From the IMG/VR virus record IMGVR_UViG_3300042940_001591: 64,000 nt of DNA, one strand, 5' to 3'. The number at the start of each line of letters is the position of its first letter. Within the stretch, counting starts at the first letter, position 1. The stretch comes from a virus. Lineage: Duplodnaviria > Caudoviricetes. The notes below the pieces were generated by a model, which was not told the origin of the DNA, made no database searches, and was given only the letters and a program-made list of their open reading frames with translations. Of this stretch, positions 43,875 to 64,000 are shown in pieces. The translations under genes were made by a program, and so were the position numbers.

Positions 43875-45893
43875 ATGGCAGTAGATTTCTTTGAGGACGG
43901 ACCAACCTCAACCCCTAAAAAGGGACGCAAAGGTTCAACCACACCAATTTTAGATAACTTCTCAAGAGATTTAATTAAACTCGCAGAAGAAGGTAAAATT
44001 GATCCCGTTGTTGGTAGGGATAAAGAAGTGAAAAGAATAGCTCAAATTCTTTCACGTAAAAAGAAAAATAATGCGGTTATTGTTGGTGATGCCGGTGTTG
44101 GTAAGTCCGCACTTGTTGAAAAACTTGCTTTAATGATTGTTAAAGGAGATTGTCCAACAAATTTATTAGATAAGCGAATTATGTCTTTAGATTTAACTTC
44201 ACTTGTTGCTGGTACAAAATATCGTGGACAATTTGAAGAACGTATTAAAGCAATTTTAAACGAATTACAAGAATCACCAAATGTAATCGTGTTTATTGAT
44301 GAATTACACACAATGGTGGGTGCAGGTAATGCGAGTGGTGCGATGGATGCTGCAAATATTATGAAACCGGCTTTGGCTCGTGGTGAAATTCAATGTATTG
44401 GTGCAACTACTTTTGATGAATTTAAAAAACACATCGAAAAAGATTCCGCATTAGTTAGAAGATTTCAGAAGGTAATTTTGAAAGAACCTACGATGGCAGA
44501 AACAGTTGAGATTCTTAAAAATTTAAAAGAGTCATATGAAACATTTCATAGGGTATCTTATGAGGAAAATGTAATAGAAACAATTGTTAAACTTTCTGGT
44601 AGATACATTACAGATAGACAATTTCCTGATAAGGCGATTGATGTAATAGACGAATTAGGTTCAGAAAAAAGAGTATCGAGTAGAGTACCCGAATCAATTG
44701 AAAAATTAAAAAAATTGATTGATGAGATAAAAGAAAGAAAAATACAAGTTGTTAAATCTCAAAATTATGAACAAGCGGCAAAATTAAGAGATGAAGAAAA
44801 GAAAATTTTTGATAAACTTGAAAACGAAAAGGTAAAATGGTCAGAAAAACAAAAGGGGAATAAAATTCCTGTGTCCGTTGATGATGTTTATACCATAGTT
44901 TCCGAAATGACTGGTGTACCAATTACTAAACTTGATAGTAAGGAAACAGAAAAACTGTTAAAAATGGAAACCTTATTGACTGATAAAGTAATTGGACAAG
45001 AAGAAGCAATTACAACAATATCAAAAGCAATTAGAAGGAATCGTGTTGGAATCAAAGATGCAAATAAACCTATAGGTTCATTTATCTTTTTAGGATCTAC
45101 GGGTGTTGGTAAAACACATTTAGCGAAATCATTAGCCAATCTTTTATTTGGTGACCCTGAAAAAATCATTCGTGTTGATATGAGTGAGTTTATGGATAGA
45201 CACAATGTTTCTAAATTAATCGGTTCTCCTCCGGGTTACGTTGGATACGATGAAGGTGGTCAATTAACTGAAAAGGTTAAAAACAACCCATTCTCTGTTA
45301 TTTTATTTGATGAGATTGAAAAAGCACATAAAGACGTTTTTAATCTATTATTACAAATTTTAGATGAAGGACATTTAACAGATTCATTTGGTCGAAAAAT
45401 AAACTTCACAAATTGTTTGGTTATCATGACATCCAATTTAGGAGCTAAAAGAGTTTCTGAATTTGGTGGAGGTGTTGGTTTTAATACATCATCGAGCGAA
45501 ACTCAAAAGTATGAGGTAAGAAAATCAATGATACAAAAGGCATTAAAACAACAATTCAATCCTGAATTTTTAAATCGTATTGATGACGTAATATTATTCA
45601 ATGCACTTAACGAAGAAACTCTTAAGAAAATAATTCAAATAGAGGTTGGTAAATTAAACAGTAGATTGTTAGATAAAAATTTCTTAGTAACTTTTGATAA
45701 AACCGTTACAAATAGAATTTTTGAATTAAACAGTCAAGAAGAATATGGTGCTCGTCCTTTAAAACGAATCATTCAAAATCTTTGTGAAGATTTTTTAAGT
45801 GAAGAAATACTAAGAGGAAATATAAAGGAAAACGAACCAATAACTCTTAAATATAAAGATGAAAAATTAACAATTTCAAAAAAATTGTTATAA
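43875..45893 (+). CDS. clpC: ClpC-like AAA+ ATPase lacking the N-terminal domain
   Basis: D1 GDAGVGKS, FIDELH; UVR QNYEQAAKLRDEE; D2 GSTGVGKT, RVDMSEF, GSPPGYVGY, FDEIEKAH; VGF loop; YGARPLKR. Confidence 0.9.
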   Translation: MAVDFFEDGPTSTPKKGRKGSTTPILDNFSRDLIKLAEEGKIDPVVGRDKEVKRIAQILSRKKKNNAVIVGDAGVGKSALVEKLALMIVKGDCPTNLLDKRIMSLDLTSLVAGTKYRGQFEERIKAILNELQESPNVIVFIDELHTMVGAGNASGAMDAANIMKPALARGEIQCIGATTFDEFKKHIEKDSALVRRFQKVILKEPTMAETVEILKNLKESYETFHRVSYEENVIETIVKLSGRYITDRQFPDKAIDVIDELGSEKRVSSRVPESIEKLKKLIDEIKERKIQVVKSQNYEQAAKLRDEEKKIFDKLENEKVKWSEKQKGNKIPVSVDDVYTIVSEMTGVPITKLDSKETEKLLKMETLLTDKVIGQEEAITTISKAIRRNRVGIKDANKPIGSFIFLGSTGVGKTHLAKSLANLLFGDPEKIIRVDMSEFMDRHNVSKLIGSPPGYVGYDEGGQLTEKVKNNPFSVILFDEIEKAHKDVFNLLLQILDEGHLTDSFGRKINFTNCLVIMTSNLGAKRVSEFGGGVGFNTSSSETQKYEVRKSMIQKALKQQFNPEFLNRIDDVILFNALNEETLKKIIQIEVGKLNSRLLDKNFLVTFDKTVTNRIFELNSQEEYGARPLKRIIQNLCEDFLSEEILRGNIKENEPITLKYKDEKLTISKKLL

Positions 45894-58813: not shown

Positions 58814-60458
58814 TGGTTAAATCAACTTTATTTCCTTTCGCGTCAACAGCATCCGATAAAACAAAGTAGAATAAACCCGCAGTATTTGTTAAAGTAGTTT
58901 TTGGTGTGAATATTAATTTATATGGAGTACCTACTTTAATTCTCGCACTTTTCAATTGGTCAATAGAACCAAACGTTAATCTACCATCTTTATGTGTAGA
59001 AAAGTTTGTGATAGTTGAACCTGAATCAAATATGATATTATCCAAAGTTAATTTAGACTCATCATAATTCATTATTACTTGTAAACCTGCTAATTCTGTC
59101 TTTGTTAATGTAGTGGTTAATACAACCTTACCACCCTCTAATGTTGATGTAATACCTAATGTTGCCTTTTCCACTGCTAAAGTTTGATAAGCCATCGGGG
59201 CAGTACTCATAGATTTTATAGAACTAGTTGCTTTATCATTTACAGAATTTGTAAATTGACCTGCAGTTATTTTAGTTGCAATTACCGCTGGGTCGGATGA
59301 ATGTGACCAGTTTAAGTCTCCACCCCACGCAAATACAGCATAAACCTCTTTTGTAGGTGAATCAATTAATACTCTATTCTTAACCACACCATCTAACCAA
59401 CTTTGATTCAATAAACCACTATACCATCTTACTGATGTTGATGTGTTTGTTGGAATCATTGCGTTTGAGTCAGTATTTTGTCCCATTACATGTGCAAATA
59501 ATGCGTATGAATCTCCTTCACCAAACGCGTTTTGGTTATTGGTTACCTTACCAACTTTCTTTTCCAATGCTGGTAGAGTAAAGAAGTTCGCGGTACCACT
59601 AATATCAGTTTGTGAGTGTCCTAAGAATGCTTTATAGGCATCTGATACGGTTACAATGTTGTTCATCCAAGTTTTTTGAAACGCGGGTCCAACGAATACC
59701 CCAACTGAATCACCCACTTTAACTTGTGTTGTGAATAACGCTTCACCACTTGCATCCAATGGTAATTGTGCAATAGGTTGTTGTGACCAATCAATTTCAC
59801 CACTACCATTTGATTTCAATTTCATCAATTGAACATTATGGTCGGTAATAGTATATCCTTGTGGATATAATACTTTTACTTTGAATTGTGACGTGTTACC
59901 AACAACATTACTTACAGATGACCAACCACCACCAAAGATAGTCCCAACATTTGCACCGGCAGTGTCGGTACCCGTTGCCAAATCTATTTTGAAAATATTG
60001 TTATATGTATTTTGGTCTTTTAAAACATATTTTTGAGTCGCAATTAAACCACTAATAGATGCATCAGCTCTTTGAACGGTTAATTGTCCAACATTCCAAT
60101 CAGCATTTACCGCATAACCCCAAGGAGTTAAACCATATTGAAGATCTAAATTATTATCACTCGTAGTGCTGTTTGGTGTAAACTTATAGTTACTCCATCC
60201 AGTGTAAAATGTTTGGGCAGACGTGCCTTGGTTAAATGCGGTTGACACATATGATAATGCCTTATTATTAAATTGATATCTAAACCAAAGATAACGAGGG
60301 TTTTTAATTACAGTACCTTTTGTTAAGTTATATTTAACCGTTAGTGTGTCTCCTACTTTTAATCCAGTAGTTGGTGTTATTGATTGACTAATTGTTAATT
60401 GACCGAATGATGTAAAGGCGATCAATAAAAAAAAGCTAAGAGAGAGTAGTTTTTTCAT
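58806..60458 (-). CDS. Secreted cohesin-like / dockerin-like protein, paralog of the adjacent adhesin
   Basis: Signal peptide; VGDTLTVKYNL..FRYQFNNKALSY; IVTVSDAYKAF; GDLNWSHS; GLQVIMNYDESKLTL. Confidence 0.7.
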   Translation of the reverse strand: MKKLLSLSFFLLIAFTSFGQLTISQSITPTTGLKVGDTLTVKYNLTKGTVIKNPRYLWFRYQFNNKALSYVSTAFNQGTSAQTFYTGWSNYKFTPNSTTSDNNLDLQYGLTPWGYAVNADWNVGQLTVQRADASISGLIATQKYVLKDQNTYNNIFKIDLATGTDTAGANVGTIFGGGWSSVSNVVGNTSQFKVKVLYPQGYTITDHNVQLMKLKSNGSGEIDWSQQPIAQLPLDASGEALFTTQVKVGDSVGVFVGPAFQKTWMNNIVTVSDAYKAFLGHSQTDISGTANFFTLPALEKKVGKVTNNQNAFGEGDSYALFAHVMGQNTDSNAMIPTNTSTSVRWYSGLLNQSWLDGVVKNRVLIDSPTKEVYAVFAWGGDLNWSHSSDPAVIATKITAGQFTNSVNDKATSSIKSMSTAPMAYQTLAVEKATLGITSTLEGGKVVLTTTLTKTELAGLQVIMNYDESKLTLDNIIFDSGSTITNFSTHKDGRLTFGSIDQLKSARIKVGTPYKLIFTPKTTLTNTAGLFYFVLSDAVDAKGNKVDLTIE

Positions 60459-60473
60459 TTTATTATTTTTTTT

Positions 60474-61124
60474 TTATTTTTTATCCATTAATTTATTTAT
60501 TAATTTTTCACTAGCCTTTTTAAGTGCATTACTTAAAGATGTTTGGTTAAACGACCCCCCTTCATCGACAATAAGCGTCGACATAGAAACTTCAGATGAT
60601 GATTCCTCAACAACAAATTCTTTTTCTTTTTTACCGTCTTTTGTTAATGTTCCCTTCAATCTAATAACCACTTCCTCCTGATTAGAATGGAAAACAGATA
60701 TGTTCTTCTTTGTTGTAAGAACATCTAAATAAACAATTTGTACTTTTAATTTGTAAGGAGATGATGCCGATAAATCGTAGCCTTTTTCTTGTAAAAACTC
60801 TTCTAATATGTTTTTAACCCCGAATGCTAAATTTCTGTTACCAGCCAATTTACCAATTTTAACCTCATTGGTTACACTCTCAACCCAAATATGGTCTTCA
60901 GCATTATACCAAATGTTTTCTGGAGAGTTTTTGAATGTTCCATCAATTCTCCACGAAATCCAATTAACGATATTTCGTTGCAACTCATGTTTGCCGGAAA
61001 ACTCTAAATAAACAAAGAATAATTGAAAACAAAGGGCAAAGACTATCCAAAATACTACTAATCTTAAAAATACCCAAAATAATATATTGCCTAAATTAAG
61101 TGATAATGTTCTAATTCTTTCCAT
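60474..61124 (-). CDS. Membrane-anchored protein with CsgG/TolB-N-like domain
   Basis: N-terminal TM; LAFGVKNILEEFLQ..FNQTSLSNALKKA parallels GLGVANISMEYLE..FNQSTISIATKKA of 51517-52239. Confidence 0.55.
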   Translation of the reverse strand: MERIRTLSLNLGNILFWVFLRLVVFWIVFALCFQLFFVYLEFSGKHELQRNIVNWISWRIDGTFKNSPENIWYNAEDHIWVESVTNEVKIGKLAGNRNLAFGVKNILEEFLQEKGYDLSASSPYKLKVQIVYLDVLTTKKNISVFHSNQEEVVIRLKGTLTKDGKKEKEFVVEESSSEVSMSTLIVDEGGSFNQTSLSNALKKASEKLINKLMDKK

Positions 61125-61200
61125 ATGAAATTTTTTAAAGTACTCCTGGCAATTTTCATATGAAAAGAGTCAGGAGAGAGATAATTTTTATTTGTCCCTT

Positions 61201-61207
61201 ATAAATA
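61201..61207 (-). promoter_or_regulatory. TATTTAT motif (putative phage-sigma promoter) heading the envelope-protein cluster
   Basis: The same motif precedes many structural genes on the sense strand (e.g. 646, 2667, 4666, 11891, 25462, 32412). Confidence 0.55.
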
Positions 61208-61250
61208 TCAACACTTTATACATCTGACAAAAAAAAGTTTTTAACTTTTC

Positions 61251-61281
61251 TTGATTATATACGTATTTATTAATATCTTTG
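61251..61281 (+). promoter_or_regulatory. Bacteroidota sigma-A-type promoter for the tRNA array
   Basis: TTG (61251-53) - N20 - TATCTTTG (61274-81). Confidence 0.75.
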
Positions 61282-61310
61282 TAAAAGAAAAAAAGATAAA
61301 ACTAAATTCA

Positions 61311-61406
61311 ATGAGACAATTAACAAACATAACGTCGACATCAAACCAACTAAATTGGAATGAGCAACCTATGCGCATATGTCTCGATGATACTGATGTT
61401 GGTTAA
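61311..61406 (+). CDS. Putative leader peptide (31 aa) of the tRNA array
   Basis: MRQLTNITSTSNQLNWNEQPMRICLDDTDVG*; A-rich upstream context; lies between promoter and terminator. Confidence 0.55.
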   Translation: MRQLTNITSTSNQLNWNEQPMRICLDDTDVG

Positions 61407-61429
61407 TTTAGTTTAACTTAAAATATTAG

Positions 61430-61468
61430 AAAACCTCGGGACTTAAAAATCTCGAGGTTTTTTGTTTT
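61430..61468 (+). terminator. Intrinsic terminator/attenuator immediately before the first tRNA
   Basis: aaaacctcggga-cttaaaaa-tctcgaggtttt (12 bp, one G-U) followed by ttgtttt. Confidence 0.75.
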
Positions 61469-61476
61469 ATACAAAT

Positions 61477-61551
61477 AGGGTAATGGACTAATGGCTAAGT
61501 CACTTGCTTTGGGAGCAAGGCATCATGGAGGTTCGAGTCCTCTTTACCCTA
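61477..61551 (+). tRNA. tRNA-Pro(TGG)
   Basis: AGGGTAA/TTACCCT acceptor; CTTGC-TTTGGGA-GCAAG; GGAGG-TTCGAGT-CCTCT. Confidence 0.9.
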
Positions 61552-61556
61552 CAAAC

Positions 61557-61628
61557 GCTGATTTAGCTCAGAGGTAGAGCACGAAGCTGTTAACTTCGGG
61601 GTCCAGATATCGTAATTCTGAATCAGCG
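61557..61628 (+). tRNA. tRNA-Asn(GTT), atypical T-loop
   Basis: GCTGATT/AATCAGC; CGAAG-CTGTTAA-CTTCG; T-arm CAGAT-ATCGTAA-TTCTG. Confidence 0.85.
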
Positions 61629-61634
61629 CAAAAT

Positions 61635-61706
61635 GCGTGTGTAGTTCAATTGGTAGAATTTCGGTCTCCAAAACCGAAGATGAAGGTTCGAGTCCTTACA
61701 TGCGTG
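61635..61706 (+). tRNA. tRNA-Trp(CCA)
   Basis: GTTC-AATTGGTA-GAAT D-arm; TCGGT-CTCCAAA-ACCGA; AAGG-TTCGAGT-CCTT. Confidence 0.9.
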
Positions 61707-61713
61707 CAACAAT

Positions 61714-61793
61714 ACCCGAGTGGTGGAATGGTATACACAGCGGTCTTAGAAACCGTGTCGAAAGGCGTGTCGGTTCGAGTCCGACCTTGGGTA
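61714..61793 (+). tRNA. tRNA-Leu(TAG)
   Basis: ACCCGAG/CTTGGGT; GCGGT-CTTAGAA-ACCGT; long variable arm; GTCGG-TTCGAGT-CCGAC. Confidence 0.92.
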
Positions 61794-61798
61794 CATAT

Positions 61799-61869
61799 TG
61801 TCCTTTAGTATAGTGGTAGTACAGATGGTTTTGGTCCATCTAGCTGTGGTTCGAGCCCACGAGGGACAA
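61799..61869 (+). tRNA. tRNA-Gln(TTG)
   Basis: TGTCCTT/AGGGACA; GATGG-TTTTGGT-CCATC; TGTGG-TTCGAGC-CCACG. Confidence 0.9.
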
Positions 61870-61874
61870 CATAT

Positions 61875-61947
61875 TGCGGGGAGGAGGGTACCCGACCAGT
61901 CTCATAAGCTGTGTCTTTTCCGGTTTCGACTACCGGCCCCGCAACCA
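61875..61947 (+). tRNA. tRNA-Met(CAT), initiator-like acceptor, aberrant D-arm, encoded CCA
   Basis: TGCGGGG/CCCCGCA-A-CCA; CAGT-CTCATAA-GCTG; CCGGT-TTCGACT-ACCGG. Confidence 0.75.
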
Positions 61948-61964
61948 AAAAGATTTTAAAATAA

Positions 61965-61996
61965 TTTGGAATATCTGAAATTATTTATTATCTTTG
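61965..61996 (+). promoter_or_regulatory. Bacteroidota sigma-A-type promoter, internal to the array
   Basis: TTTG (61965-68) - N20 - TATCTTTG (61989-96). Confidence 0.75.
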
Positions 61997-62003
61997 TTAA
62001 ACA

Positions 62004-62089
62004 ATGGTTGATTGGGATTTAACGGGGCTAGCGAATAGCGAGAAACGCCAATCATAAAAACAGATGTCCACACCCCCATCTTCTGTTTT
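62004..62089 (+). other. Structured leader: 17-aa uORF (62004-62057) plus hairpin, before tRNA-Thr
   Basis: MVDWDLTGLANSEKRQS*; TGATTGG/CCAATCA stem; AAAACAGATG...CATCTTCTGTTTT hairpin. Confidence 0.4.
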
Positions 62090-62097
62090 CCATAGTA

Positions 62098-62171
62098 GCC
62101 CGAATAGCTCAGCTGGCCAGAGCAACTGATTTGTAATCAGTAGGTCCTCAGTTCGAATCTGAGTTTGGGCT
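62098..62171 (+). tRNA. tRNA-Thr(TGT)
   Basis: GCCCGAA/TTTGGGC; ACTGA-TTTGTAA-TCAGT; CTCAG-TTCGAAT-CTGAG. Confidence 0.93.
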
Positions 62172-62173
62172 CA

Positions 62174-62349
62174 ACAGGTGACGACGGTGGTGTAACCCCA
62201 CTGTCTATGAATCCCAAAAGATCCGTCTGACTCGCGAGGTAGGGCGGTGAGGGTAGAGTTACTATAAGTCGGGAATAATTACCCCAATACGAAAATGTAA
62301 CCGCAGACTATGTCTGTTATGATGTACATAGATGGTACGAAAAACCTGT
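62174..62349 (+). ncRNA. Candidate ~175-nt multi-stem ncRNA
   Basis: Closing ACAGGT/ACCTGT; GACGGTGG/CCACTGTC; CCGTCT/GGGCGG; GTTAC/GTAAC; GCAGAC/GTCTGT; GC-rich, no ORF. Confidence 0.5.
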
Positions 62350-62361
62350 AACTTTTTGAAA

Positions 62362-62426
62362 CTAACTCAACGAGGACTTTGTCAACCAGAGCAGTGACTC
62401 GGATGGTGCAACTTAAGGTGAGTTAG
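62362..62426 (+). ncRNA. Candidate ~65-nt structured RNA
   Basis: CTAACTCA/TGAGTTAG closing stem; CGAG/CTCG and GTCA/TGAC inner stems. Confidence 0.35.
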
Positions 62427-62437
62427 AATCAATTTTT

Positions 62438-62522
62438 AGAGAGTTGGCCGAGTGGTTGATGGCACCAGTCTTGAAAACTGGCATACTGAAAGGTATCTGG
62501 GGTTCGAATCCCTAACTCTCTG
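62438..62522 (+). tRNA. tRNA-Ser(TGA)
   Basis: AGAGAGT/ACTCTCT-G; CCAGT-CTTGAAA-ACTGG; long variable arm; TGGGG-TTCGAAT-CCCTA. Confidence 0.93.
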
Positions 62523-62526
62523 CAAG

Positions 62527-62610
62527 AATTAACTAAGATACTGTAAAACCAGTAGGTGGTGATTCCAGATTTATCTGTGAGCCATTTAAACCCTGATAGC
62601 AATGTTAATT
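62527..62610 (+). ncRNA. Candidate ~85-nt structured RNA
   Basis: AATTAAC/GTTAATT closing; TACTG/CAGTA; GTGGT/GCCAT enclosing CAGA/TCTG. Confidence 0.35.
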
Positions 62611-62643
62611 TTTAATATATAATATTTTTTTTATATTAAGATA

Positions 62644-62674
62644 TTGATTTCCAACATTTTATTCTGTATATTTG
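62644..62674 (+). promoter_or_regulatory. Bacteroidota sigma-A-type promoter
   Basis: TTG (62644-46) - N20 - TATATTTG (62667-74). Confidence 0.7.
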
Positions 62675-62698
62675 TCATATTATTAATATTTATAATAT

Positions 62699-63001
62699 AT
62701 GATAGATAAAATCACATTATCGTTAATGTTATTTTTTAACACATTAACATCATCTATCGACCCAAGTCTTTCTGATGAAAGAAAGTCAGTCAATCAAATA
62801 AAAAAAGAGATTAAATCCCTTGAAAGAAAGATTGAATGGGTTGAAGTAACAGATGAGAATTACGCTAGCAGGGCCGTCAAAACCAAAGAAATCACGGACG
62901 AGATTACCAAATTGAATGGTAAAATTGTAAAGATTGAGAAGGTTGCAAAATTAAAAGAGAAATGGGCAACGGAAGATTCCTTGTCCAAATCAAAAAAATG
63001 A
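62699..63001 (+). CDS. Exported coiled-coil protein
   Basis: Hydrophobic N-terminus, then a heptad-rich helix. Confidence 0.65.
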   Translation: MIDKITLSLMLFFNTLTSSIDPSLSDERKSVNQIKKEIKSLERKIEWVEVTDENYASRAVKTKEITDEITKLNGKIVKIEKVAKLKEKWATEDSLSKSKK

Positions 63002-63447
63002 AAAAAATTTTTTTAGTGCTAACGTTACTTTTGGGAGTGGAAGTCGTAGCAAATGGACAAGAGTGGTTTATAACCGCCACTCGAAAAGGCGGTCCATCAG
63101 ACGGTTATATAACAGGTGGTTTTATGAAAAAAGGTTGGGGGTTTTATGCGGGACTTCCATACGGTGAAATAAAAACCCCAAATGGCGGAATTTCAATTCC
63201 CCCTGGTGTTAACACCAATACAGGAAATGTGTCCGATAACATGAAGTTTGGTGTTCTTAGACAATTAAAAGAAGACAAGGCGATTGTTGGATTTGGATTA
63301 CAGCCAACACTTGATGGTAATAAACCAAATTTTCTTATAATGTACAATCCACTTAGGCCAAGTACTGTTATAAATTTATGGACAATTGGTAATTTAGTCG
63401 GTAGTGATTTTACATTAGGACTTGGATTATCGTATAAAGTAAAATAA
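62998..63447 (+). CDS. Small outer-membrane beta-barrel-like protein (start set at MKKIFL)
   Basis: Signal peptide (VANG-Q); amphipathic strands; C-terminal FTLGLGLSYKVK. Confidence 0.7.
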   Translation: MKKIFLVLTLLLGVEVVANGQEWFITATRKGGPSDGYITGGFMKKGWGFYAGLPYGEIKTPNGGISIPPGVNTNTGNVSDNMKFGVLRQLKEDKAIVGFGLQPTLDGNKPNFLIMYNPLRPSTVINLWTIGNLVGSDFTLGLGLSYKVK

Positions 63448-63472
63448 AATAAAATTTTAGTTAAGTTAATTC

Positions 63473-63508
63473 CCTGAACAAACTAAAAAAATTGTTCGGG
63501 GTTTTTTT
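63473..63508 (+). terminator. Intrinsic terminator
   Basis: ccctgaacaa...ttgttcgggg followed by T7. Confidence 0.7.
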
Positions 63509-63525
63509 ATATCACATTTTTTGTT

Positions 63526-63533
63526 TATGTTTG
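63526..63533 (+). promoter_or_regulatory. Bacteroidota -7 element before tRNA-Leu(TAA)
   Basis: TATGTTTG. Confidence 0.55.
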
Positions 63534-63568
63534 AGTTATAGTTCTTTGATGTATTGGAAAAACAAAAT

Positions 63569-63653
63569 GCCTGAGTGATGAAATGGTATACATGACAGAC
63601 TTAAAATCTGTTGAGCAGAAACGCTCGTGCGGGTTCAAGTCCCGCCTCAGGTA
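63569..63653 (+). tRNA. tRNA-Leu(TAA)
   Basis: GCCTGAG/CTCAGGT; ACAGA-CTTAAAA-TCTGT; long variable arm; GCGGG-TTCAAGT-CCCGC. Confidence 0.93.
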
Positions 63654-63655
63654 CA

Positions 63656-63765
63656 AATGTAATGACTCAGAAATGAGTGACGGAACGGACGCTACGTATG
63701 AAATGGAAACTTTTGATGCACGTACAAAGGTGCTGATTAGAAACAAACCGTACAGACATTACATT
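63656..63765 (+). ncRNA. Candidate ~110-nt structured RNA
   Basis: Perfect 9-bp closing stem AATGTAATG/CATTACATT; ACTCA-GAAA-TGAGT GNRA hairpin; ACGG/CCGT; TACGT/ACGTA. Confidence 0.45.
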
Positions 63766-63770
63766 AACTT

Positions 63771-63844
63771 GGTTCCGTAGCTCAGTTGGATAGAGCAACA
63801 TCCTTCTAAGATGTGGGTCTTTGGTTCGAATCCAAACGGGATCA
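63771..63844 (+). tRNA. tRNA-Arg(TCT)
   Basis: GGTTCCG/CGGGATC; ACATC-CTTCTAA-GATGT; TTTGG-TTCGAAT-CCAAA. Confidence 0.93.
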
Positions 63845-63854
63845 CGTAAATTTT

Positions 63855-63928
63855 GGACTTGTAGCTCACTCGGTTAGAGCGGCACACTCATAATGTGAAG
63901 GTAGTAGGTTCGATTCCTACCTGGTCCA
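63855..63928 (+). tRNA. tRNA(CAT), probably Ile2 (lysidine) type, possibly elongator Met
   Basis: GGACTTG/CTGGTCC-A; CACA-CTCATAA-TGTG; GTAGG-TTCGATT-CCTAC; overall look closer to ileX-type tRNAs. Confidence 0.85.
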
Positions 63929-64000
63929 CTTTTAAGTTATGGGTCTCCGATGGAAGTCCGCAAGAAAAATAGATGTTTTTCATCCATCAAAAAATTACCA

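Follow-up and report, generated by a model that had tools for sequence, protein, structure and literature searches.

We describe here a short leader that precedes the tRNA array of a jumbo phage and that combines a promoter, a small upstream open reading frame (uORF), a set of alternative RNA pairings and an intrinsic terminator, with the codons of the uORF mirroring the anticodons encoded directly downstream. We consider it likely that this leader is a ribosome-mediated attenuator of the trp style, whose input is the supply of the tRNAs that it controls, with translation of the leader and conditional read-through of the terminator being inferred. As part of this reading, the unit under control is most likely the first transcription unit of the phage tRNA array, and the regulatory codons are those that its tRNAs read. 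The phage probably makes these tRNAs only while the sampled codons are being decoded slowly.

The stretch of DNA analysed (64 kb, G+C content 32%; hereafter the window) encodes a portal protein, a large terminase, a major head protein and a DNA polymerase, and is therefore phage DNA. IMG/VR contigs related to it measure 324–334 kb, and one of these, G006, is rated 97% complete and carries all of its 26 tRNA genes in one array; the phage of the window is therefore a jumbo phage. The stretch itself is contained in DNA runs from lake-water metagenomes. The leader is absent from G001, the record nearest to the window, and blastn against GenBank phages gave similarity at the tRNA level only, with no cultured relative.

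Anatomy of the leader and the tRNA array

The elements of the locus, all on the + strand, are as follows.

61251–61281, +: Bacteroidota-type promoter, read from the sequence; TTG at 61251–53 and TATCTTTG at 61274–81 (TAnnTTTG −7 box)
61308–61318, +: region 1, the anti-antiterminator strand, TCAATGAGACA, including the start codon; pairs with 61380–61390 in the full-length MFE structure
61311–61406, +: leader ORF of 31 sense codons plus TAA, MRQLTNITSTSNQLNWNEQPMRICLDDTDVG; ATG at 61311, TAA at 61404–06
61314–61376, +: variable "codon sampler", codons 2–22; 19/22 codons read by the 11 tRNAs of the window, 10/11 tRNAs represented
61380–61390, +: region 2, TGTCTCGATGA, with the core GTCTCGA at 61381–87; alternative partners are region 1 or the terminator 5′ arm
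61393–61429, +: central hairpin P2, from folding; its 5′ strand is formed by the last four codons and the stop codon
61430–61468, +: intrinsic terminator; 5′ arm 61430–41, loop, 3′ arm 61450–61, T-run
61477–61947, +: proximal tRNA block; Pro-TGG, Asn-GTT, Trp-CCA, Leu-TAG, Gln-TTG and an atypical CAT tRNA
61875–61947, +: the atypical CAT tRNA, found by ARAGORN at a relaxed threshold only and without an Rfam match
62098–63929, +: distal tRNAs; Thr-TGT, Ser-TGA, Leu-TAA, Arg-TCT and Met/Ile2-CAT, whose codons also occur in the leader

An earlier note on this DNA, made from the letters alone, had described the promoter (61251–81), the 31-codon uORF (61311–61406) and the terminator (61430–61461 and T-run), and all three are present as it described them. 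The two promoter boxes fit the −33/−7 consensus of Bacteroidota, with TAnnTTTG as the −7 element, and of the 92 distinct leaders among the matches listed, 78 have this motif no more than 60 nt before the ATG, at a median distance of 28 nt. The 5′ UTR of the uORF is A-rich. The terminator hairpin has 12 bp (61430–61441 / 61450–61461), extended to 15 pairs at 61427–61464 in the terminator scan, and on its own is assigned −18.7 kcal/mol by RNAfold; its 5′ arm contains the core of region 3, TCGGGAC at 61436–42. In all 22 IMG/VR variants the T-run ends 54–59 nt past the stop codon. The terminator sits 13 nt upstream of tRNA-Pro, which starts at 61477, and in most leader variants just 6–14 nt lie between the T-run and the first tRNA, which therefore leaves no room for a second promoter, as had been argued before for the window alone.

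With default settings, ARAGORN reports 10 tRNAs in the window; the eleventh (CAT, 61875–61947) needs the relaxed threshold. The tRNA calls were made with ARAGORN at relaxed thresholds, and the CAT tRNAs may be either Met or Ile2.

The leader codons match the array of the window

The earlier note had proposed that codons 2–17 of the uORF are all read by the array, and this holds with standard wobble if one of the CAT tRNAs is taken to be Ile2. The run of covered codons in fact extends to 20, beginning three codons upstream of the ATG; no longer run occurs in any of the six frames of the 64-kb window, where the runner-up is 14. Of the 11 tRNAs, 10 are represented in the variable part of the uORF, a count that the earlier note had given for the first 16 codons. 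By comparison, the 19 codons that the window array can read make up 34% of the codons in the long ORFs of the window, and the other two frames of the leader stretch have 7/20 and 6/20 codons covered. Dinucleotide shuffling of the local sequence never gave 16/16 or 20/20 (50,000 shuffles), and none of 15,882 same-length windows taken from the phage's own ORFs attained both 19/22 codons and 10/11 tRNAs. The ORF-window null is the harsher of the two.

The sampled codons change with the downstream tRNA genes

Homologous loci were collected from IMG/VR and metagenomes by an exact hairpin search, by motif-pair searches, by searches anchored on the first tRNA and by a metagenome scan with the terminator alone, which gave at least 148 loci with at least 92 distinct uORFs and at least 78 distinct peptides. 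Every one of these relatives was found by way of conserved motifs or the terminator, so that the sample understates how much those parts vary; those from the metagenome scan, in particular, were selected by the presence of a terminator. Six hits (L018 and L024–L028) fitted the search patterns by chance and were excluded, and L039 and L040, in which the Pro tRNA lies in mid-array, were left out of further analysis.

The ORF is kept across the 92 distinct variants among the matches listed, mostly with 27–34 codons. Its variable part contains no in-frame stop in the leaders listed, whereas the other two frames contain 29 and 72. Within the uORF, the start and the last ~9 codons are conserved, and the middle is variable and covaries with the tRNA genes that follow. 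Clustering at 50% peptide identity gives seven leader clusters, each with near-complete tRNA representation.

The match was quantified on the 58 distinct uORFs among the matches listed that have at least 1.5 kb of downstream sequence, using leader codons 2 to n−9. A cognate codon is present in the leader for 454 of the 472 tRNAs within 1.5 kb downstream (96.2%). When the arrays are permuted among the leaders, representation falls to a mean of 75% and a maximum of 82.5% (2000 permutations), and when the leader is read in the other two frames it falls to 57.6% and 47.2%, with 68.6% for the reverse complement. The comparison of reading frames serves as an internal control, in which composition and phylogeny are held fixed. 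For individual anticodons, the presence of the codon in the leader depends on the presence of the tRNA as follows.

TAG (Leu; codons counted, CTA/CTG): codon in leader in 8/9 with the tRNA present, 0/49 with the tRNA absent
GCA (Cys): 41/41 present, 4/17 absent
ACG (Arg): 36/38 present, 4/20 absent
GTT (Asn): 13/13 present, 10/45 absent
GTA (Tyr): 5/5 present, 5/53 absent
GCT (Ser): 4/4 present, 4/54 absent

For Leu, Arg, Ser and Thr, the cognate codons are favoured over the phage's own synonymous usage. Pro is an exception, leaders having mostly CCT, which is not the strict cognate of Pro-TGG.

The counts over 58–92 leaders are not phylogenetically independent, and the case for codon matching is carried instead by several unrelated leader designs. 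Class A leaders, the type found in the window (..TSNQLNWNEQP..), precede Pro-Asn-Trp-(Leu-TAG)-Gln-(His)-CAT, and CTA is present exactly in those leaders whose block has Leu-TAG. Class B leaders (..SFIICSKWADER.. / ..HTMSFIICSKWADER..) precede Ala-Ile-Phe-Lys-Trp-Arg(ACG)-Cys-His-Met and then Asp-Ser-Glu, and all 12–13 of these tRNAs have a cognate leader codon, a result reached by none of ~13,800 ORF windows (maximum 11). Phages of class B also have Pro, Asn, Leu-TAG and Gln tRNAs, located over 3 kb further on, with a terminator and another promoter in between. Their leaders, in which Asn and Pro codons are lacking, do not sample these distal tRNAs; what the leader follows is therefore the proximal transcription unit and not the tRNA set of the genome. 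Smaller changes in the block are also accompanied by changes in the leader. Where other leaders read WADER and go with Asp and Glu tRNAs, L173 reads WASQR and goes with Gln and Ser tRNAs, and L084 has WAAVR with a Val-TAC tRNA; Tyr and Arg codons were gained in L070 together with Tyr and Arg-ACG tRNAs, and Cys and His codons in L063 and L125 together with Cys and His tRNAs. There are also leaders that precede quite other blocks: L157 (variable part ..ASWSYSPCSAYPAGS..) stands before Tyr, Pro, Ser-TGA, Ser-GCT, Ala, Trp and Cys; L107, in front of His, Ser-GCT and Cys, has many His, Ser(AGT) and Cys codons; and L168 is followed by 16 tRNAs. The sequences of these last three leaders are unrelated, and they nonetheless obey the same codon–tRNA rule.

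The match is not without exceptions. L034 retains TGG, CAT and ACA without having Trp, His or Thr tRNAs, and L050/51 lack Phe and Lys tRNAs yet retain TTT and two AAA codons.

Conservation of the uORF, and codons that track the anticodons of each genome, had been put forward earlier as the decisive check, and the relatives answer it strongly in the affirmative; the core of the interpretation given in the note is supported. It had also been pointed out that the enrichment would disappear if the full array, beyond the window, covered most codons. This is not what is found, since close relatives whose arrays end at 13 tRNAs are still enriched; in relatives with 24–26 tRNAs, the leader follows the proximal transcription unit and not the whole array.

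Alternative pairings in the leader RNA

Folding predicts three states. In the MFE structure of the full-length leader, the terminator forms and region 1 (61308–18, with the AUG) pairs with region 2 (61380–90). In a nascent RNA that still lacks the terminator 3′ arm, and whose 5′ part is masked to mimic a ribosome at about codon 12, GTCTCGA (61381–87) pairs instead with TCGGGAC (61436–42) according to RNAfold, and this pairing encloses P2 (61393–61429), which carries the stop codon. The same three states are predicted in 22/22 IMG/VR variants. The antiterminator proposed in the earlier note thus stands as far as GTCTCGA/TCGGGAC is concerned, whereas its suggested extension by GGTT/AACC does not, the hairpin at 61393–61429 forming there. 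The attenuator geometry that it had inferred is likewise confirmed, and is extended by the predicted region 1:2 anti-antiterminator, which had not been noticed.

Among the 92 leaders in the matches listed, the antiterminator is predicted in 89, compared with 35% when the 3′ part of the uORF is shuffled, and the region 1:2 pairing in 69, compared with 12% when the 5′ end is shuffled; in the most divergent leaders, region 1:2 is absent or different. The sequence GTCTCGA is read as TGT-CTC-GAT in most leaders and as TCT-CGA in L045 and L048, and the C-terminal peptides differ (..LDDTDVG, ..SRTEDINKG, ..SRGFSNCIG, ..SLGDVVLS). Being kept in two reading frames while the peptides differ, this motif is therefore conserved as RNA and not as peptide.

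Covariation of the hairpins, which had also been proposed as a check, is seen in part of the pairs. The 11-bp core of the terminator has zero mismatches across the 22 variants and shows a double compensatory change at two positions (C-G,U-A to U-A,C-G). In the antiterminator, an A-U pair is replaced by G-C in L047, L050 and L051, and the antiterminator of L048 forms one uninterrupted helix of 11–12 bp. P2 is kept with different sequences in L045, L047, L048 and L050/51, with both-side changes at 4 pairs. RNAalifold, applied to the 22-sequence alignment, recovers region 1:2, the core of P2 and the terminator, with 7/25 pairs changed on both sides. Helix pairs were counted on motif-anchored registers, the MAFFT alignment misaligning region 2 of L045 and L048.

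A model for control of the tRNA block, and its alternatives

That the leader is translated, which way the switch works and what triggers it physiologically are all inferred, on the basis of the anatomy just described and the classical attenuator model. Transcription would start ~7 nt past the TAnnTTTG box, and a ribosome would load on the AUG, which is located inside region 1. In the absence of a ribosome, or once the ribosome has moved past the variable stretch of ~21 codons, region 1 would pair with region 2, leaving the terminator 5′ arm free for the 3′ arm, so that RNA polymerase would stop at the T-run before tRNA-Pro. If, on the other hand, the ribosome is delayed on any of the sampled codons as region 3 emerges, regions 1 and 2 would be held apart; region 2 could then pair with region 3 as the antiterminator, with P2 acting as a clamp, the terminator would not form and the tRNA block would be transcribed. 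Such a leader would act as an any-of-N gate, in which more of the whole tRNA block is made as soon as any one of the sampled codons is decoded slowly. As the tRNAs accumulate, the leader would be read fast and transcription would stop, giving negative feedback between supply and demand. The bracket that regions 1 and 2 form around the sampled codons suggests that the quantity measured is whether the ribosome is still inside the bracket as region 3 emerges. One limit of this model is that each tRNA is sampled by 1–3 dispersed codons and not by runs like those of classical attenuators, and the sensitivity of the device is uncertain.

Some features of the locus leave room for a codon-matched leader with another output or the opposite polarity, in which fast translation opens the terminator, or in which the position of the ribosome acts, in place of intrinsic termination, on Rho or on how the precursor is processed or how stable it is (RNase P/E access), an alternative that we consider unlikely. 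A ribosome at the stop codon leaves region 2 just outside its expected footprint, which speaks for this alternative; under trp-style attenuation, termination in the fast state must therefore rely on re-pairing of regions 1 and 2. The re-pairing so needed is predicted in just 69/92 leaders among the matches listed. Its absence from the predicted folds of 23 of the 92 leaders listed also favours the alternative, as does the existence of RNA-library contigs that bridge the terminator. These contigs, the sole expression data, come from the metatranscriptomes of two studies, run into the tRNAs (61302–61530 and 61416–61632) and have a low depth of ~2.5; neither the depth values nor the uncovered parts of the stretch bear on expression. 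The two contigs are a weak hint, compatible with co-transcription, and DNA carry-over is not excluded. Against another output or polarity, a strong terminator is universally kept, with compensatory changes, directly before the first tRNA, and the sampled codons precede the segment that competes for its 5′ arm, which is the classical layout, in which stalling frees this segment. Moreover, if more tRNA led to more transcription, there would be no reason for the codon matching to follow the proximal block only.

Trp and his attenuation are established as responding to the supply of aminoacyl-tRNA, and a ribosome-mediated attenuator of the present kind would also stall upon starvation. One could thus regard the leader as a general amino-acid starvation sensor, responding to the charging of many tRNAs and merely located before tRNA genes. 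We find this improbable, in that the match is at the level of isoacceptors and anticodons (CTA only with Leu-TAG, AGY with Ser-GCT, CGN with Arg-ACG), the synonymous codons favoured are the cognate ones, and the sampled set changes with the downstream tRNA set, which a general sensor would not need. That the uORF is an ordinary small phage gene whose peptide is functional, or else an sRNA ending at a terminator of its own, with codons that reflect bias or chance and with the tRNAs expressed independently, is hardly tenable: phage genes are indeed enriched in codons read by phage tRNAs (the 34% background) and the tails of real ORF windows are heavier than binomial, but codon content is conserved where peptide sequence is not, the C-terminal part shifts frame while the RNA motif stays, no ORF window of the phage attains the observed representation, neither permutation nor frame controls reproduce the match, and in most variants there is no promoter room between the T-run and the first tRNA.

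If the leader is an attenuator that senses the supply of its own tRNAs, it may in addition be a surveillance device against the loss of host tRNAs, with any-of-N detection of host tRNA cleavage or degradation, by an anticodon nuclease or host shut-off, being answered by transcription of the matching phage replacements. This trigger is speculative, as is the suggestion of anticodon-nuclease defence or starvation in the earlier note, and we regard the surveillance role as possible but doubtful. Should it prove true, the codon list would be a readable record of the tRNAs contested in a given phage–host pair.

Comparison with known regulatory systems

Classical leader-peptide attenuators include trpL, hisL, leuL and pheL, as well as the multivalent thrL (Thr/Ile) and ilvL (Ile/Leu/Val). 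The phage leader resembles them in having a short leader ORF (translated in the classical cases), regulatory codons that would be sensed by slow decoding, exclusive 1:2, 2:3 and 3:4 hairpins, here predicted, and a terminator before the genes. It differs from them in several respects. First of all, it would control tRNA genes and not biosynthetic enzymes. Second, it mixes 10–16 different codons, each used 1–3 times, without runs. Third, its codon set co-evolves with the anticodons encoded downstream. Finally, its region 1 holds the start codon, and the predicted 1:2 helix brackets the whole sensing stretch. In a search with Rfam, His_leader (RF00514) gave only a sub-threshold hit at 61329–61467 (25.2 bits, E = 0.42; gathering threshold 49 bits), and the leader of the window has no run of His codons.

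A further comparison is with the pheM leader of pheST and with attenuators of other aminoacyl-tRNA synthetase genes, where ribosome-mediated attenuation adjusts a translation component to the supply of charged tRNA; in pheM/pheST, unlike in the phage leader, a single amino acid is sensed and the output is a synthetase. T-box riboswitches likewise sense a specific tRNA by codon–anticodon reading and act through a terminator/antiterminator switch, whereas, in contrast to what we propose for the phage leader, they bind the tRNA directly without a ribosome, rely on a single specifier codon and regulate genes for synthetases or amino-acid genes. No T-box (RF00230) match was obtained with Rfam at E ≤ 1 in 60000–64000. 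A Phe-rich attenuator before the tRNA-Phe genes of E. coli was considered as a precedent and rejected, pheU and pheV having a promoter directly upstream and no leader ORF.

The array itself is of a familiar kind, clustered tRNA genes interspersed with structured non-coding RNAs being found in T4, T5, vibriophage, mycobacteriophage and jumbo phages. The role proposed for such arrays is to replace depleted or cleaved host tRNAs, and compensation for codon usage has also been discussed. To our knowledge, these arrays have been described as promoter-driven, and how their expression is set is largely unknown. Full-text literature searches returned no report of a leader-peptide attenuator, or of a codon-matched leader with a terminator, before tRNA genes. 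The evidence supports a mechanism of a known kind, ribosome-mediated attenuation, in which the new element is the link of input and output: a sampler of many codons, co-evolving with the tRNA genes under its control.

A translated leader that mirrors codons in this way would be a self-tuning supply-and-demand regulator for tRNAs, and would carry trp-style attenuation beyond amino-acid metabolism, to the machinery of decoding. Each change of the tRNA block brings a rewritten sensing list, which makes the leader modular and evolvable. The leader also gives a sequence-level way to delimit tRNA transcription units and shows which tRNAs matter to a given phage, and it makes the question of when and why phages express tRNAs directly testable by reporters. 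As a natural multi-input translational sensor, it may be reusable in synthetic biology.

The remainder of the array

No further cassettes of a uORF and a terminator were found in the other inter-tRNA gaps of L047, L029, L015 and L004. In the window, a second leader-peptide cassette was considered at 61997–62097, before tRNA-Thr, and rejected in favour of a structured RNA: this element is near-identical in many relatives, has no ATG in L008 and is not enriched in array codons (7/16). The distal part of the array contains at least two more promoters, one with TATCTTTG at 61989–96 and one with ATGTTTG at ~63530.

Transcription units of the tRNA array

Judged from its sequence, the tRNA array is predicted to be made up of several transcription units, with the codon-matched leader on only the first of those in the window. 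This reading rests on an internal terminator and promoter, preceded by two small ORFs that the terminator closes off.

62699-63447, two small ORFs
63455-63545, strong terminator (GAACAA...TTGTTCGGGG followed by a T-run), then a promoter

The promoter is of the TAnnTTTG type, lying downstream of the terminator and immediately 5' of tRNA-Leu(TAA). The same terminator-promoter layout recurs in four of the related loci collected from databases (L004, L015, L029 and L047).

A further element with its own promoter lies directly 5' of tRNA-Thr.

61989-96, promoter of the element (TATCTTTG)
61997-62097, element of about 100 nt

Near-identical copies of this element are found in many related arrays, and it contains a TGATTGG/CCAATCA helix together with a weak hairpin whose tail is T-rich. 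The window copy holds a 17-codon ORF, the ATG of which is missing in the counterpart from the related locus L008; on this comparison of sequences, the element thus appears to be a 5' leader RNA that is structured and conserved, not a second leader peptide.

Spacers and inserts

Two of the spacers between tRNA genes have counterparts in related arrays.

62173-62437, G+C-rich spacer of 265 nt between tRNA-Thr and tRNA-Ser
63655-63770, spacer of 116 nt between tRNA-Leu(TAA) and tRNA-Arg(TCT)

The first, for which Rfam gave no match, is clearly homologous to spacers that Met-CAT and Asp-GTC flank in the L029, L015 and L047 arrays. It probably represents a structured non-coding RNA transcribed together with the tRNAs. 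The second, kept in L015, has self-complementary ends (AATGTAATG...CATTACATT) and may act as a processing element or be a further small structured RNA.

In some class B relatives, those whose leaders precede an Ala-Ile-Phe-Lys-Trp-Arg-Cys-His-Met tRNA block, 50-85 nt are inserted between the leader terminator with its T-run and tRNA-Ala (L015, L043 and L046/L050/L051). This insert holds a further hairpin (TTTTGGC...GCCAAAA) and may serve as a processing site or as a second terminator, or may simply be the scar of an insertion.

Atypical tRNA calls and a predicted protease gene

61875-61947, atypical tRNA with anticodon CAT (Met or Ile2), called by ARAGORN at a relaxed threshold

Both default ARAGORN and the Rfam tRNA model miss this CAT tRNA; relatives have a counterpart at the equivalent place. 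Relaxed-threshold ARAGORN also calls a tRNA with anticodon TTA, which would read the stop codon TAA, immediately 3' of the array's last Met tRNA in two related loci (L010:5505-5585 and L004:7910-7990, oriented coordinates). These calls may be false positives or represent a suppressor-like tRNA.

43875-45893, 672-aa protein matching a PHROG family

The family, matched very strongly (E = 9e-241), is annotated as ATP-dependent (Lon-like) protease, an unusual cargo in a phage.
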